From a phage: 64,000 bases of DNA. The translations under genes and the position numbers were made by a program. Location: the NCBI GenBank assembly GCA_012628545.1, contig GCA_012628545.1_3035.1, one strand, 5' to 3'. Numbering within the stretch: the first letter of the stretch is position 1; the number at the start of each line of letters is the position of its first letter. Positions 34,006-62,551 of the stretch are shown piece by piece. The notes under the pieces are model-generated. The model made no database searches. It was not told the origin of the DNA and saw only the letters and a list, made by a program, of their open reading frames with translations.

Positions 34006-34146
34006 TTACCATACTAGTGAATGTAGTGCCATAATAACATCAGAAATGAAAAGCACGACTTGAATTAATCCGAACATTATTCCGTAATATAACGCTACCA
34101 ATAAAGTAGCAAGGGCTAGTGAATAGCCCAAGATTTTCTTAATCAT
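34006..34146 (-). CDS. small hydrophobic protein (46 aa)
   Basis: Hand-translated MIKKILGYSLALATLLVALYYG...; below ORF-track cutoff. Confidence 0.35.
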   Translation of the reverse strand: MIKKILGYSLALATLLVALYYGIMFGLIQVVLFISDVIMALHSLVW

Positions 34147-34297
34147 TAGTAGATAACAACACAAATGTTAAATATGCACACATACCCTGGGCTAAAGCTT
34201 GTGAAAACACACTGCTGGCATCAATACAGATAGTTAAAACACATGCTACTATCCAACAAATAAATGAAATAACTCCTAATAATTTTGCGATATTCAT
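34139..34297 (-). CDS. small membrane protein (52 aa), possible Ac
   Basis: Hand-translated MNIAKLLGVISFICWIVACVL...; size and position between 52 and stp fit T4 ac. Confidence 0.35.
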   Translation of the reverse strand: MNIAKLLGVISFICWIVACVLTICIDASSVFSQALAQGMCAYLTFVLLSTND

Positions 34298-34304
34298 ATT
34301 TTCC

Positions 34305-34385
34305 TCACTGGCGTCCGAAGACGCCTTTAGTTTTAAGATTGTTACGATAAAACTGCATCACATGTTCGTTGTGGAAATTACTCAT
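34305..34385 (-). CDS. stp: Stp peptide (26 aa)
   Basis: Hand-translated [26 protein letters not shown]; ATG overlaps ndd stop (TAATG). Confidence 0.7.
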
Positions 34386-34828
34386 TAATATGCCTGCAAA
34401 ACGAATTTAAAGTTATCAGCCAACATACGGTTCATTTCTTCAAGTGTTTGATACTCAGAATGATGATTACGAGTAAACGCCAAAGCTAACTGACCTTTAC
34501 CAAATCCTGTCGTCAGAGGTTTCATCTTAGAAGCAGGCAGATAAAATACTGTGTATGGAACATTGTTATTTGCAATAGTACGCGCAAGTTGAGACCGGCG
34601 TTGACGAATATGACTTAGAACTGCGCTGAATCCTTGCTTAGAACGCTGATTACCCACATAAAATCGTGCGGATACGCATGAACCATCGAATTCATTTACT
34701 AAAAAGTAAAATCCAGGTTTAGATAAAATATCTTTATGCGGAGTTCCCAAAAACCACTCACCACCCTTGATTGTACCAATAACAGTAGCGCCTGCATTAT
34801 TCAGATCAGTAACAGTCATATATTTCAT
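34385..34828 (-). CDS. ndd: nucleoid disruption protein
   Basis: About 147 aa from internal ATG ([13 protein letters not shown]); sequence recall of T4 Ndd. Confidence 0.85.
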
Positions 34829-34886
34829 GTTAATTTCCTCTAAATTATTTTCTACTCCAAGGCCGCATGAATACGCGGCCATTAAA

Positions 34887-35102
34887 TTAATCGTCGCAGT
34901 CGACGCTCAATTCCCAGAATTCTTCTACGGTGTAAGTTTCAGTATCATTTTCAATACAGAAACGTTCATTACTATTATTTGCTAAAGTAGCATTAACTGT
35001 CGGTTTCTCGCTAGTGCTCTTAAGAGGTGAAATACGAATTAACTGATCACCGTTATCTAAACAGAAAATTTCACCAACTTTTACATCTTTAAAACTTTTC
35101 AT
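34887..35102 (-). CDS. hypothetical protein
   Basis: 71-aa ORF. Confidence 0.45.
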
Positions 35103-35217
35103 AATTCACCTCAAGGAGTATAAAATCCAAATGCAGTTGTTGACCATCCCATCCAATATGGGAAATTTGCACCAATGTAAAACATAAGAATATAAAACCA
35201 ACCGCTCAACAAATTCA

Positions 35218-35436
35218 TCATTTTACACCATTCCAAATTGTTTCAACTACGGATTTTAAACCATTTTGATGAATGTCCATTCCGACTACCGCCATCAAAT
35301 AGATTCCAACTACAACTGAACCTAAGGCAAAAATCAGCATGAAAATGAATAAAGCCGGAAAAATATTATCGAAAAACCATTCAATAAATGTAAAAGCATT
35401 GCGTTTACGCTTCATATTTTCCTCACATAAATCCAA
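35218..35436 (-). CDS. small membrane protein
   Basis: 72-aa ORF with two hydrophobic segments. Confidence 0.45.
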   Translation of the reverse strand: MDLCEENMKRKRNAFTFIEWFFDNIFPALFIFMLIFALGSVVVGIYLMAVVGMDIHQNGLKSVVETIWNGVK

Positions 35437-35536
35437 AGTAAACGTTTAATACATCAATCATTAAAACGATTGGGAATATACTCAAAACTATTAGTATTAT
35501 AACTACATTCCATATAGCTTTAATAATCTTTTTCAT
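35423..35536 (-). CDS. small membrane protein (37 aa)
   Basis: Internal ATG (MKKIIKAIWNVVIIL...) of ORF-track 35423..35671; the remainder reads through a promoter. Confidence 0.3.
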   Translation of the reverse strand: MKKIIKAIWNVVIILIVLSIFPIVLMIDVLNVYFGFM

Positions 35537-35550
35537 TTTCTGTTCCTCCG

Positions 35551-35594
35551 TAGTTGATAGGGTAATAGTACCACGGAAGAACAGTCTTGTAAAC
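35551..35594 (-). promoter_or_regulatory. early promoter (conserved family)
   Basis: GTTTAC, 15 bp, TGGTACTATTACCCTATCAACTAC. Confidence 0.45.
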
Positions 35595-35779
35595 AACTTT
35601 TTTAAAAATATTCGTAATAAATGTGAATACCAACTACTACCGCTGAAACCTGTGCAACCCACCATGCACAAGCAATAAGTACAGAATTTAAAATTTTCAT
35701 AATAACCTCATTACAAAAGTAAATGTTAAACAAATTACTGGAATACTAATTAACCAAACAAAACACCACCATAGTGAAC

Positions 35780-36043
35780 TCATAGCTCAATCTCAATGAT
35801 TTCAAGATTATTTTCTTTAATAGCTTTCTTTAAATCATCGTAAATAAGAACTTCCCAAGAATTGTTTAAATCACCATTCAACAAACGCTCTTGTTGCAAT
35901 TTATCAGTAAGATACGGTTGATCTGATTCATATTTAGACAATCCCAATGAAATAAATGATGTTGCATCGTCAATTTCAGAATATTGTACATGAACAAATT
36001 CACCTGTGATTTTATGTTTAACATAAAAGAATTTAAATTTCAT
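35780..36043 (-). CDS. hypothetical protein
   Basis: 87-aa ORF just downstream of an early promoter copy. Confidence 0.45.
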   Translation of the reverse strand: MKFKFFYVKHKITGEFVHVQYSEIDDATSFISLGLSKYESDQPYLTDKLQQERLLNGDLNNSWEVLIYDDLKKAIKENNLEIIEIEL

Positions 36044-36057
36044 TTTCCGCTCCTCCG

Positions 36058-36101
36058 TAGTTGATAGTTGTATAGTACCACGGTCCTTGTGGTATGTAAA
36101 C
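36058..36101 (-). promoter_or_regulatory. early promoter (conserved family)
   Basis: GTTTAC, 15 bp, TGGTACTATACAACTATCAACTAC. Confidence 0.45.
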
Positions 36102-36119: not shown

Positions 36120-36677
36120 TTAAATGGAAAGATACCATCCGTTGTAGTTGCTTTTTCTTACAACCTTACGAAGGTCTTCTCTGTCACCGATGAACTTCGG
36201 AGTGTACTGGATGACACCTGGATGAATTTCTTTAGTGTTGAATATAATTATACAGTCAGCGACTTGATGATTTAGAATGGGCCCTAGATTTATTCCAGAA
36301 CCATATGGATACTCTCCGCTGCATCCTGTTGTTACCGAAATCCAACGTGAGTCAGTTTGATGTGTCTTAACTTCTACGCGAAGCCCACAGTATTTTGGAT
36401 GCGCCAATACATCCCATGCATACGTGTACGGATCATCGACATCTTCTTGACCTTTATTAACATACCCGCTTAACCAATCTGCTACAAAAAACTCTGCGTA
36501 CACAGCGATACGACATCTTTCGATAACTTCTGCCTTATCCTGGTTCGGGTTTTGTTTTAAAGAGTATCTTGCTGTATCAGCAATTTTGACCTTCATTTCA
36601 TTGGTTAAATCGCTGTTCGATAGAGTAAATGTCGGAATCTGAAATAGTCTCTGCAAACCCGGATTCGTTTTCTGCAT
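36120..36677 (-). CDS. denB: endonuclease IV
   Basis: 185-aa ORF; T4 DenB length and position next to rIIB. Confidence 0.7.
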   Translation of the reverse strand: MQKTNPGLQRLFQIPTFTLSNSDLTNEMKVKIADTARYSLKQNPNQDKAEVIERCRIAVYAEFFVADWLSGYVNKGQEDVDDPYTYAWDVLAHPKYCGLRVEVKTHQTDSRWISVTTGCSGEYPYGSGINLGPILNHQVADCIIIFNTKEIHPGVIQYTPKFIGDREDLRKVVRKSNYNGWYLSI

Positions 36678-36720
36678 TTAAACTTTCCTTTATGTCGGAA
36701 TCATAATTTCTCTTAAAACA

Positions 36721-36740
36721 AAAGGGCCGAAGCCCTTATT
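36721..36740 (-). terminator. UUCG-loop hairpin after ORF 36741..36935
   Basis: aagggc-cgaa-gccctt followed on minus strand by U-rich tract. Confidence 0.4.
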
Positions 36741-36935
36741 TTATTTGAATTGTGCGATTCTTTTCTCTAAACATTCAGCATAAGATTTCATTGAGATGAA
36801 CTGTGAAAGCAGTAATTCTTGCTCAACTTCATTAATCGTTAGAAACTTTGTGCTTTCTAAAAATTTGCTCAGTGCATTAATTTTGAGCATTAATTGATCG
36901 TATTCTTCTTTTACTCGTGCTTGATAACCTAACAT
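36741..36935 (-). CDS. hypothetical protein
   Basis: 64-aa ORF flanked by two identical hairpins. Confidence 0.45.
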   Translation of the reverse strand: MLGYQARVKEEYDQLMLKINALSKFLESTKFLTINEVEQELLLSQFISMKSYAECLEKRIAQFK

Positions 36936-36951
36936 AATTTTCCTTAATATG

Positions 36952-36970
36952 ATAAGGGCCGAAGCCCTTA
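36952..36970 (-). promoter_or_regulatory. intercistronic UUCG-loop hairpin at rIIB stop
   Basis: Same 17-mer aagggccgaagccctta as at 36722..36738. Confidence 0.35.
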
Positions 36971-37906
36971 TTTAAATTGTTCAGTAACGTCTTCAACTAC
37001 TTCGTATTGGCAGGTACGCATTTTAGCATCGTTGTAATCAATCGGAATTGATACTACATCACGTGGATGTACTTTAACTTTTACAACTCGGCTGGTTGAA
37101 CTGCCAAAGTGACGAATATAAGATTTAGAACACACATGCAGACCACGAGAACAAGTTTGTGTATCATCGTCATTCACACGAGTACGTGGCATTTTAACTA
37201 CTTTACCAGGACTGTTATCAAAGGTGTTTGAGTGACAGTCAAAGTAGTTGTCACGAACTACTTTCCAAGCATAGAAGTAACCATCTTCTGTAATTTCAAT
37301 ATCGTTTGCTACCAAGAAATCAAAGAGTCGAGATACCGCTTTCTGGCTTGGGTTTTCCAGCAGATTTTCCAAGAACGGAAAATAAAATTCAAAGTTTTCA
37401 CCTTTTTCCATCGAGTCAAGAATACGATCAACTAAACCAGATCGCAATTCAATATTTTGATAGAACAAGCTTCCACCTTCAATTCGAACATCACCGGAAA
37501 TATATTTTTCAACAGCGCGGCGAACATTAATTTTTTGTGCCGCTTCTTCCAATTTATCTGCAACAAGCAGATTAAGAATTTCCTGGAAGTTTGAATGAGT
37601 ATTAGGAGTTGCGTTATAAGTTACACCATCAACAGTAATTGAAATGAATTTTTTAGATGCATTCCAAATAATGTCAGATTTAGCAACTGGAGCAATAGCT
37701 ACATCACTCTTAACTTCAACTGTAATGTCACCGCTAATGGTAACTTTAGGACGTTTAGCTTCTTCAGCATTTTTCAAAACACGACGGATTGTGTCAACCG
37801 ATACACCTTGCCAATCAGCCAATTCCTGTTGGGTGTAATTACCACTTGAATACAGTTTGACAATTTCAGCTTGTTCGTTTTTGGTCAGGCATTTAATATT
37901 GTACAT
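36968..37906 (-). CDS. rIIB: rIIB protein
   Basis: 312-aa ORF; T4 rIIB length and synteny. Confidence 0.9.
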   Translation of the reverse strand: MYNIKCLTKNEQAEIVKLYSSGNYTQQELADWQGVSVDTIRRVLKNAEEAKRPKVTISGDITVEVKSDVAIAPVAKSDIIWNASKKFISITVDGVTYNATPNTHSNFQEILNLLVADKLEEAAQKINVRRAVEKYISGDVRIEGGSLFYQNIELRSGLVDRILDSMEKGENFEFYFPFLENLLENPSQKAVSRLFDFLVANDIEITEDGYFYAWKVVRDNYFDCHSNTFDNSPGKVVKMPRTRVNDDDTQTCSRGLHVCSKSYIRHFGSSTSRVVKVKVHPRDVVSIPIDYNDAKMRTCQYEVVEDVTEQFK

Positions 37907-62314: not shown

Positions 62315-62551
62315 TCAAATGCAAGTAGTAATTACTCCAGTAGTGCTTATGCAGGTATTACCCATTTGCACACCTAAAGATCCATTTGTATTCACATGAA
62401 GATTATCATCAATTTTAACTGATATTTTACCATTAGTGTGAATAACAGTGCTAGATTCAATCACAGGTTGAGTATCATTTTCAACACTAACAAATGGAAC
62501 TGCTGCTAATGCAACTAAACAAACTGCTAAGCATCCCATAACAATTTTCAT
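62315..62551 (-). CDS. hypothetical secreted protein
   Basis: 78 aa from internal ATG (MKIVMGCLAVCL signal peptide); ORF-track extension reads through a promoter. Confidence 0.45.
   Translation of the reverse strand: MKIVMGCLAVCLVALAAVPFVSVENDTQPVIESSTVIHTNGKISVKIDDNLHVNTNGSLGVQMGNTCISTTGVITTCI

Follow-up and report, generated by a model that had tools for sequence, protein, structure and literature searches.

A block of seven very short genes between ndd and denB of a T4-like phage corresponds to the annotated ndd.1–ndd.6 genes of T4

Results and Discussion

The interval from 34,887 to 36,043 of the window, the 64,000-nucleotide stretch of phage DNA analyzed here, corresponds by sequence to the block annotated in phage T4 as ndd.1 to ndd.6, and in the window it is made up of seven protein-coding genes, all very short and all on the minus strand (Table 1). 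The window itself is, to judge from its nucleotide sequence, the genome of a T4-like phage of the genus Tequatrovirus. The best explanation of the interval as a whole, which is very probably correct, is that it is the ndd.1–ndd.6 block of a T4-type phage, a set of early accessory genes encoding mostly membrane peptides. Because this block is already annotated in T4 the cluster is not new, and the initial annotation, which reported a cluster of tiny hydrophobic ORFs between ndd and denB, is a correct observation but an ordinary rediscovery of annotated genes. There is strong support for the seven small ORFs being genuine genes, and likewise for their being accessory, that is, conserved in nature and dispensable on laboratory E. 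coli. The ndd.x genes belong to the approximately one half of the T4 genome still lacking a function, and as a class the small membrane peptides of phages have received little study.

Table 1. Features of the ndd–denB region, with positions in the window; identities are to the T4 products.
Feature	Coordinates	Strand	Description	Identity to T4; family
52.1 (gp52.1)	34006-34146
ac (Ac)	34139-34297
ndd	34385..34828	-	nucleoid disruption gene; downstream flank; annotated in relatives	93% to Ndd
Hairpin	34862..34881	-	GC-rich, GGCCGC-N8-GCGGCC, between ndd.1 and ndd; without U-tract
ndd.1	34887..35102	-	71 aa; acidic, soluble	97% to Ndd.1; phrog_2183
ndd.2	35111..35221	-	36 aa; predicted aromatic interface peptide	97% to Ndd.2; phrog_4135
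ndd.2a/3	35218..35415	-	65 aa; predicted membrane protein	96%; phrog_2401; Pfam DUF7248
ndd.4	35423..35536	-	37 aa; predicted single-pass membrane peptide	100%; phrog_3098
Leader type 1, second copy	35531-35560		after P2, upstream of ndd.4
Early promoter P2	35565..35594	-	GTTTACAAGACTGTTCTTCCGTGGTACTAT; promoter scan and pattern match
ndd.5	35602..35700	-	32 aa; predicted single-pass membrane peptide	100% to Ndd.5; phrog_5011
ndd.6	35697..35783	-	28 aa; predicted single-pass membrane peptide	100% to Ndd.6; phrog_8851
orf87	35780..36043	-	87 aa; acidic, soluble; minority 'A' allele	phrog_2390
Leader type 1	36038..36067	-	CTATCAACTACGGAGGAGCGGAAAATGAAA; 5' UTR, GGAGGA Shine-Dalgarno, orf87 start codon
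Early promoter P1	36072..36101	-	GTTTACA-N13-GTGGTACTAT; -35 TTTACA, 17-nt spacer, extended -10 TGgTACTAT
denB	36120..36677	-	endonuclease IV; upstream flank; annotated in T4	99% to DenB
Second hairpin of the scan	36722-36737

Identity and gene models

The region is 94–97% identical to hundreds of Tequatrovirus genomes, and alignment and a tblastn map indicate that it is collinear with the ndd to denB segments of T4 and Bas43, location, order and strand all matching. As in T4, the block lies between ndd and denB and is served by two early promoters; the T4 genes ndd.1, ndd.2, ndd.2a, ndd.3, ndd.4, ndd.5 and ndd.6 are T4p269–T4p275, and their older names include denB.-1 and denB.-2. The six products common to both phages are nearly or fully identical (Table 1), and all seven ORFs match PHROG families with E values of 1e-17 to 1e-39. 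Homologues of ndd.1 carry the precomputed Pfam assignment PF26909, and Ndd.2a/3, with 71.5 bits where the cutoff is 27 (E = 5.5e-20), falls within DUF7248 (PF23906). No paralogues were found in the cluster or the window, and no homology to proteins of known function was detected in Pfam, NCBIfam or PADLOC or by an exhaustive HMMER search with Ndd.2a/3, which returned T4-like relatives only, plus low-complexity noise. The structure prediction for Ndd.1 has a pLDDT of 58, and the model is therefore too poor for a structure search.

The window differs from T4 in carrying an extra gene, orf87, between P1 and ndd.6, and it differs from the T4 reference record in that ndd.2a and ndd.3 form a single ORF of 65 aa, the start of which is the ATG downstream of a GAGGAAAA Shine-Dalgarno sequence. 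In the window, in Bas43 and in a resequenced T4 the ORF is continuous; the split is confined to the T4 reference record, where it results from the deletion of 1 nt. A further difference from that record is that ndd.4 of the window begins at the ATG giving 37 aa, whereas T4 is annotated with 42 aa; the start of the 42-aa form is an ATG made by a C-to-T change within the Shine-Dalgarno sequence. The small ORFs listed in the initial annotation are present where it placed them, all on the minus strand, and are genuine genes by selection and PHROG matches, with the amendments that its 72-aa ORF is a real gene whose upstream TTG start gives way to the ATG of the 65-aa model, and that the 36-aa ndd.2 was missing from the list. 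Clean gene models are thus gained for the single 65-aa Ndd.2a/3 and the 37-aa Ndd.4, together with an 8-codon coupling remnant in T4, described below.

Promoters, leaders and expression

P1 is an exact match to the early-promoter pattern and fits the T4/PST consensus TTTACW-N17-TAYWAT (PMC4122927). Scanning the window with the pattern, allowing up to three mismatches, yields 15 matches, all on the minus strand, where 0.1 would be expected. Both of the early promoters that the initial annotation placed inside the cluster are real pattern matches, but only P2 lies within the interval, P1 being situated just beyond its upper boundary. Late or MotA-type (middle) promoter motifs were not found in the region. 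The arrangement strongly supports the assignment of orf87, ndd.6 and ndd.5 to P1 and of ndd.4, ndd.2a/3, ndd.2 and ndd.1 to P2, and transcription from P2 probably reads on into ndd.

Gene junctions within the cluster are either 4-nt ATGA overlaps or gaps of 7–8 nt, and each has a Shine-Dalgarno sequence or ATGA coupling. The start of ndd.6 overlaps the stop codon of orf87 by 4 nt in this way, ndd.5 is ATGA-coupled to ndd.6, and ndd.2 is ATGA-coupled to ndd.2a/3. There is strong support for a scheme in which host sigma-70 RNA polymerase transcribes the block from the two T4-type early promoters as two compact polycistronic messages, the lead gene of each having a strong GGAGGA Shine-Dalgarno sequence, and in which downstream genes are translated by way of the stop/start overlaps or the short gaps. 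RNA-seq of T4 places all ndd.x RNAs in the early class, and mass spectrometry of T4 detected, among the ndd.x proteins, only Ndd.1, which appeared early (PMC9697503 supplement). Absence from mass spectrometry is as expected for tiny hydrophobic peptides.

The leader that follows P1 recurs after P2 (Table 1); the duplication is a 46-nt direct repeat of 87% identity, and the 30-mer of leader type 1 occurs twice in the window. Leader type 1 also precedes nrdC.8 in T4. A pattern scan of IMG/VR for promoter-leader copies yielded only 7 stretches, and relatives were taken from GenBank phage records instead. The P1 and P2 cassettes were compared with the promoter(-terminator) cassettes known as PeSLs in T4-like phages (Arbiol 2010; Comeau 2014, PMC4122927). 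They resemble these in combining an AT-rich region upstream, the motif TTTACW-N17-TAYWAT and a start codon with its Shine-Dalgarno sequence, in recurring before different early genes, and in adjoining indels and gene replacements. No terminator-like hairpin was found immediately upstream of P1 or P2, the hairpins of the scan lying elsewhere (Table 1), and the cassettes are therefore at best 'half' PeSLs. The hairpin between ndd.1 and ndd (MFE -19.2 kcal/mol, z = -3.3) is retained, slightly altered, in both T4 and Bas43, and it probably serves in RNA stability or processing and not in termination.

Membrane character of the products

The initial annotation considered most of the peptides to have one or two transmembrane segments. 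Hydropathy analysis bears this out for four to five of the seven products, which appear to be membrane peptides, while the 71-aa and 87-aa products are soluble and acidic rather than hydrophobic and none of the seven is convincingly a two-segment protein. A hydrophobic segment of at least about 19 residues with a basic flank is present in Ndd.2a/3, Ndd.4, Ndd.5 and Ndd.6, the maximum 19-residue Kyte-Doolittle values being 2.7, 3.1, 2.2 and 2.3, respectively, and these four look like single-pass inner-membrane peptides, with topology predicted from hydropathy only. The N-termini of Ndd.2a/3 (MKRKRN) and Ndd.4 (MKKIIK) are basic; Ndd.2a/3 has a single long hydrophobic segment at approximately residues 18–46 followed by a C-terminal amphipathic tail, and the Ndd.4 peptide reads MKKIIKAIWN...SIFPIVLMID. 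Ndd.2 has a borderline hydropathy of 1.2, is 33% aromatic (F/W/Y) and has a Wimley-White interface sum of -15.4 kcal/mol, and it looks like an aromatic interfacial peptide. A small acidic cytoplasmic protein is strongly supported for both Ndd.1 (GRAVY -0.54, net charge -8) and Orf87 (GRAVY -0.42, net charge -6).

Possible functions of the block

All of ndd.1 to ndd.6 were scored 'Not Fit' by CRISPRi-ART (PMC11879866 supplement). The T4 deletion sa-delta-9, which extends from 52.1 to denB, is viable with a burst of ∼50% and abolishes phage-induced phospholipid synthesis, and the stimulation of phosphatidylglycerol is lost in the partly overlapping deletion rII-delta-DD2 (PMC6071114). Because these deletions take out 52.1, ac, stp, ndd and denB as well, the lipid phenotype is not assignable to any ndd.x gene, and the literature phenotypes mapped to the region amount to dispensability and the loss of phage-induced phospholipid synthesis in sa-delta-9.

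We tentatively propose that the peptides would enter the host inner membrane within the first minutes of infection and that, by attaching to membrane proteins of the host in the way AcrZ and MgrB do, they would adjust the permeability of the envelope and the synthesis of phospholipid (phosphatidylglycerol). AcrZ, MgrB, MgtS and SgrT are single-pass bacterial inner-membrane regulators of 30–50 aa that bind larger membrane proteins; they have no sequence relation to the cluster peptides and serve by analogy only as a model for the suggested mechanism. The action of the cluster peptides would complement that of the rII proteins, which are membrane-associated, and of the small membrane genes nearby, ac and 52.1. 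Ac and gp52.1 of T4, encoded just downstream in the shared deletable 'D region', are likewise early, non-essential peptides, of 46–52 aa with strong transmembrane segments, but they have no detectable sequence similarity to the ndd.x products, and Ac has a genetic phenotype (acridine) whereas the ndd.x genes have none. If it is true that the peptides control host phospholipid synthesis or permeability, a decades-old T4 phenotype would be explained.

Somewhat less probable is that the block, and above all Orf87 and Ndd.1, constitutes a counter-defense or host-range cassette in which an arms race diversifies the slot after P1. Diversity is concentrated in the orf87 slot, where pi is 0.25 compared with 0.02–0.06 in the flanks. 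Two alleles of ∼52% identity occur without intermediates (38 versus 574 records), the gene varies in presence and absence, and an alternative 68-aa gene occupies the slot in 129 records. This variability favors such a role, as do the small size and acidity of Orf87 and Ndd.1, which are shared by many phage inhibitors, the interaction of neighbors such as stp with host defense, and the lack of a fitness role for the genes on the laboratory strain. However, searches turned up no resemblance to known anti-defense proteins or folds, pN/pS between the orf87 alleles is 0.47 and thus not above 1, and T4, T2 and RB5 manage without orf87, T4 retaining only an 8-codon remnant, MKIAEIEL. A joint reading, to which we give still less credence, combines a P1 slot acting as a swappable host-adaptation cassette with either a nucleotide-level function of ndd.4 or a recent genus-wide sweep of that gene; the slot alleles (orf87-A, orf87-B, the 68-aa gene and the 8-codon stub) would be swapped by way of the promoter-leader repeats, and their products would inhibit host immunity in a strain-specific manner.

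The initial annotation also raised superinfection exclusion or action on host envelope defenses, and it is unlikely that the membrane peptides act in exclusion or immunity by keeping the DNA of a secondary phage out of the cell, in the manner of T4 Imm and Sp. Like Imm and Sp, which are small early membrane or periplasmic proteins, the peptides are small, expressed early and predicted to reside in the inner membrane, and their dispensability was recorded in single-infection assays, in which an exclusion role would not show. Nevertheless, the Pfam search at E ≤ 1 returned DUF7248 and weak sub-threshold unrelated matches only, none of them to a family of immunity or exclusion proteins, and the cluster products had no match in NCBIfam or PADLOC, so that the suggested role is not supported. 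T4 exclusion is already explained genetically by imm and sp, which are located elsewhere in the genome and with whose products no homology was found. The literature consulted on the sa deletions reports no exclusion phenotype, and none has been mapped to the region.

Conservation of ndd.4

Within the cluster, conservation is widest for ndd.4, homologues of which are 58–61% identical in several other T4-like genera. At an identity of at least 95% it is found in 492 of ∼495 Tequatrovirus records, compared with 307 of 494 for ndd.2, and its third-position diversity is 0.003 versus ∼0.10 in the neighboring genes. Within the genus it has almost no synonymous change and a pN/pS above 1, a pattern that is not a simple purifying-selection signature. 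It is quite improbable that ndd.4 and its leader also act at the RNA or DNA level, as a structured element or recombination cassette: the near-invariance of its third positions, a predicted hairpin and the repetition of the promoter-leader cassette elsewhere in the genome are consistent with such a role, but a recent recombinational sweep would just as well produce low diversity together with a pN/pS near 1. An RNA element in ndd.4 is not supported, the predicted hairpin being a modestly stable single-sequence fold (z = -2.6), the consensus fold of 10 homologues from several genera being weak (-5 kcal/mol, covariation -0.3), and no Rfam match being obtained at E ≤ 1. The most informative targets in the block are Ndd.4, which is universally conserved, and the orf87 slot, which is hypervariable.

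Coding evidence and selection

Across 18 Tequatrovirus loci, purifying selection is evident in six of the seven genes, all but ndd.4, with pN/pS from 0.08 to 0.47, compared with 0.06 for denB. The values within the genus are 0.08 for ndd.1, 0.13 for ndd.2, 0.09 for ndd.2a/3, 0.08 for ndd.5 and 0.24 for ndd.6, and shifted frames of the same five genes give 0.7–16. Both ndd.4 and ndd.6 stay intact as ORFs in other T4-like genera, where, at saturated pS, pN/pS is 0.39–0.42 for ndd.4, with 0.9–2.4 in its control frames, and 0.40 for ndd.6, the controls for the two genes spanning 0.9–2.5, and the denB–ndd interval holds small transmembrane-type ORFs in nearly all T4-like genera sampled. By these comparisons all seven ORFs are under selection. 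On the minus strand of the interval there are eight ATG-initiated ORFs of at least 25 aa, four of them transmembrane-like, versus 3.3 ± 1.6 and 0.6 ± 0.7 in dinucleotide shuffles; none of 500 shuffles yields four transmembrane-like ORFs, and the density of ORFs is likewise above that of all 500. The plus strand contains one ORF only. Although the peptides are absent from T4 mass spectrometry, hydrophobic ORFs arise readily from T-rich sequence, and some of the ORFs are omitted in several GenBank records, it is scarcely credible that these are chance, untranslated frames in an AT-rich early leader or spacer, given that strong purifying selection is confined to the annotated frames, that the ORFs persist across genera despite saturated synonymous change, that every junction carries ribosome-binding or coupling signals, and that ORF number and hydrophobicity together exceed those of every shuffle.

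Identity of the ndd–denB gene block

Several hundred Tequatrovirus genomes share 94–97% identity with the 2.4 kb around the feature (80% or more of its length is covered in 490 records), the ndd–denB stretch is collinear with T4 in alignment, and every gene of the block lies on the minus strand. The Ndd.1 through Ndd.6 products are 96–100% identical to the T4 proteins, each product matches its own PHROG family (E 1e-17 to 1e-39), and Ndd.2a/3 matches Pfam DUF7248 (71.5 bits), a family found in T4-like phages only. Because of these matches, the cluster of tiny ORFs singled out in the initial annotation is recognized as the annotated ndd.1–ndd.6 block, already known, which was thus correctly rediscovered. 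No block protein has a match in NCBIfam or PADLOC, and none has a paralogue within the window. Homologues of Ndd.1 and Ndd.4 are often labelled "naphthalene 1,2-dioxygenase", "outer membrane protein" or "periplasmic protein" in GenBank; these look like propagated misannotations, since sequence and size fit none of the names.

Features of the ndd–denB interval (window coordinates unless a locus is named; L001 is T4 NC_000866 and L057 another retrieved locus)
Feature	Position	Strand	Remark
denB	36120-36677	-	upstream flank
P1 early promoter	36101-36072	-	
orf87, 87 aa	35780-36043	-	not in T4
ndd.6, 28 aa	35697-35783	-	
ndd.5, 32 aa	35602-35700	-	
P2 early promoter	35594-35565	-	
ndd.4, 37 aa	35423-35536	-	
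ndd.2a/3, 65 aa	35218-35415	-	intact ORF; also L057 691-888
ndd.2a/3 pieces, T4 reference	L001 4049-4129 and 3933-4055		
ndd.2, 36 aa	35111-35221	-	
ndd.1, 71 aa	34887-35102	-	
hairpin	34862-34881	-	GC-rich, without U-tract
ndd	34385-34828	-	downstream flank

Coding potential and character of the products

The ORF cluster exceeds chance on four counts: ORF density, pN/pS, conservation of ndd.4 and ndd.6 across genera, and recurrence of small transmembrane (TM) ORFs across genera. The minus strand of 34887-36043 holds eight ATG-initiated ORFs of at least 25 aa, four with a TM-grade hydrophobic segment, against 3.3±1.6 ORFs and 0.6±0.7 TM-type ORFs in dinucleotide shuffles, none of 500 of which reached four TM-type ORFs; the plus strand holds one ORF. 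In an analysis of 18 Tequatrovirus loci, the annotated frames have pN/pS values of 0.08 for ndd.1, 0.13 for ndd.2, 0.09 for ndd.2a/3, 0.08 for ndd.5, 0.24 for ndd.6 and 0.06 for denB, compared with 0.7–16 in shifted frames of the same alignments. Homologues of ndd.4 (58–61% amino acid identity) and ndd.6 (about 40–48%) are intact ORFs in other T4-like genera, with pN/pS of about 0.4 at saturated synonymous change (controls, 0.9–2.5), and in nearly all T4-like genera sampled the denB–ndd interval carries from one to five small ORFs of TM type.

Ndd.2a/3, Ndd.4, Ndd.5 and Ndd.6 each contain one strong hydrophobic segment (19-residue hydropathy 2.2–3.1), two of these four have basic N-termini (MKRKRN and MKKIIK), and aromatic residues make up 33% of Ndd.2, a strongly interface-seeking peptide. 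The earlier description of most products as TM peptides therefore fits four or five of the seven, but not Ndd.1 and Orf87, which are acidic and soluble as judged by sequence; no convincing two-TM protein is found among the seven. The structure model of Ndd.1 was of too poor quality for use.

Possible functions

The ndd.1–ndd.6 genes are dispensable: T4 carrying the deletion sa-delta-9, which runs from 52.1 through denB, retains a burst of about 50% (PMC6071114), and each of ndd.1 to ndd.6 scored "Not Fit" in a transcriptome-wide dCas13d knock-down (PMC11879866, supplement 15). The sole physiological phenotype mapped to the region concerns lipids: sa-delta-9 abolishes phage-induced stimulation of phospholipid synthesis, and the partly overlapping rII-delta-DD2 loses phosphatidylglycerol stimulation (PMC6071114). 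Because the two deletions have denB and its neighbourhood in common and DenB is a nuclease, the small membrane peptides beside denB are the most plausible agents, on a low-confidence reading in which they would bind host proteins of the inner membrane in the manner of small membrane proteins in bacteria. For Orf87 and Ndd.1, a role in counter-defence or host range is attractive, at a rather low probability; superinfection exclusion, proposed in the initial annotation, is unsupported and improbable. That annotation stands in part, as to gene reality, membrane character and promoters, and lacks support as to function.

Gene models and invariance of ndd.4

In the T4 reference, ndd.3 and ndd.2a are one gene split by a single absent base (ATGAA-CGT versus ATGAAGCGT). 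The undivided 198-nt ORF is present in the window, Bas43 and resequenced T4 (OZ209057), and is intact in all relatives examined besides the T4 reference except T2, whose disruption is independent and different. A 16-nt sequence, GTGAGGAAAATATGAA on the minus strand, occurs identically at 34293-34308 and 35411-35426 and supplies both ac and ndd.2a/3 with their Shine-Dalgarno sequence and start.

T4 ndd.4 is annotated as 42 aa (L001 4137-4265), whereas the conserved start gives 37 aa; the extra ATG arose where the GGAGGA Shine-Dalgarno sequence underwent a C-to-T change (ACTACGGAGG to ACTATGGAGG). Third-position pi of ndd.4 in Tequatrovirus is 0.003, compared with about 0.10 in its neighbours, and the low diversity reaches to about 35331. 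Identity of at least 95% is retained over ndd.4 in 492 of about 495 Tequatrovirus records and over ndd.2 in 307 of 494. The variable sites of ndd.4 comprise five nonsynonymous and one synonymous, and within the genus pN exceeds pS. This unusual invariance, a modest lead, could reflect a recent recombinational sweep or nucleotide-level constraint. A 72-nt hairpin is predicted inside ndd.4 (z=-2.6) and is not kept across genera, leaving conserved RNA structure there unsupported.

Expression signals

The two early promoters proposed for the cluster are borne out. P1 and P2 read GTTTACA-N13-GTGGTACTAT, a pattern found 15 times in the window with at most three mismatches (0.1 expected), always on the minus strand, and fitting the T4/PST early consensus TTTACW-N17-TAYWAT (PMC4122927); the region has neither a late motif (TATAAATA) nor a MotA-box motif. 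Behind both P1 and P2, the leading gene carries the Shine-Dalgarno sequence GGAGGA. Further along, orf87/ndd.6, ndd.6/ndd.5 and ndd.2a3/ndd.2 overlap by 4 nt (ATGA), and the remaining junctions are 7–8 nt gaps with GAGG-type Shine-Dalgarno sequences. All T4 ndd.x transcripts are of the early class by RNA-seq, and Ndd.1 is the only product detected as protein (PMC9697503, supplement 4); because tiny hydrophobic peptides would be nearly invisible to the tryptic method, mass-spectrometry silence is no verdict on translation. The hairpin between ndd.1 and ndd is GGCCGC-N8-GCGGCC (z=-3.3). A mechanical 165-aa ndd ORF takes its ATG from inside this hairpin (stretch 34829-34882); conservation places the ndd start at 34828 (MKYMTV).

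The orf87 slot and shared promoter-leader cassettes

The slot behind P1, with equivalents in T4 and the retrieved loci L003, L046 and L049, is hypervariable, a diversity island with pi of 0.25 compared with 0.02–0.06 in the flanks, and constitutes a second modest lead. orf87 exists as two alleles, about 52% identical and with no intermediates between them, that of the window in 38 of 612 records, and an unrelated 68-aa gene occupies the slot, alone or alongside orf87, in 129 records. The absence of orf87 from T4, T2 and RB5 apparently traces to one shared deletion that runs in frame from one short AAATGAAA repeat to another. The remaining 8-codon ORF, MKI(A/V)EIEL, still overlaps the ndd.6 start (ATGA), which suggests that ndd.6 depends on translational coupling.

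The orf87 leader in the window repeats that of ndd.4 (46 nt, 87% identity) and is also common to T4 nrdC.8. In allele-B phages orf87 lies behind another leader, CTATCAACTACTGATACGGATTTGGAGAATAAAATGAAA, which in other phages precedes orf87-B and T4 ndd.6 and in the window occurs at 62618-62549 (minus strand), with a third copy of the early promoter whose spacer is nearly identical to that of P2. The cassette there drives a gene unrelated to orf87 (ORF 62315-62551), for a putative secreted protein of 78 aa whose N-terminus resembles a signal peptide; promoter-leader cassettes are thus common to unrelated early genes. These repeats resemble PeSL elements, proposed module shufflers (PMC4122927), but lack their upstream stem-loop. 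A separate 41-nt element including a terminator-like hairpin, AAGGGCCGAAGCCCTT, is present in two copies (78% identical) at 36707-36747 and 36939-36979, flanking denB.1 in the rIIB/denB.1 and denB.1/denB intergenic spaces.
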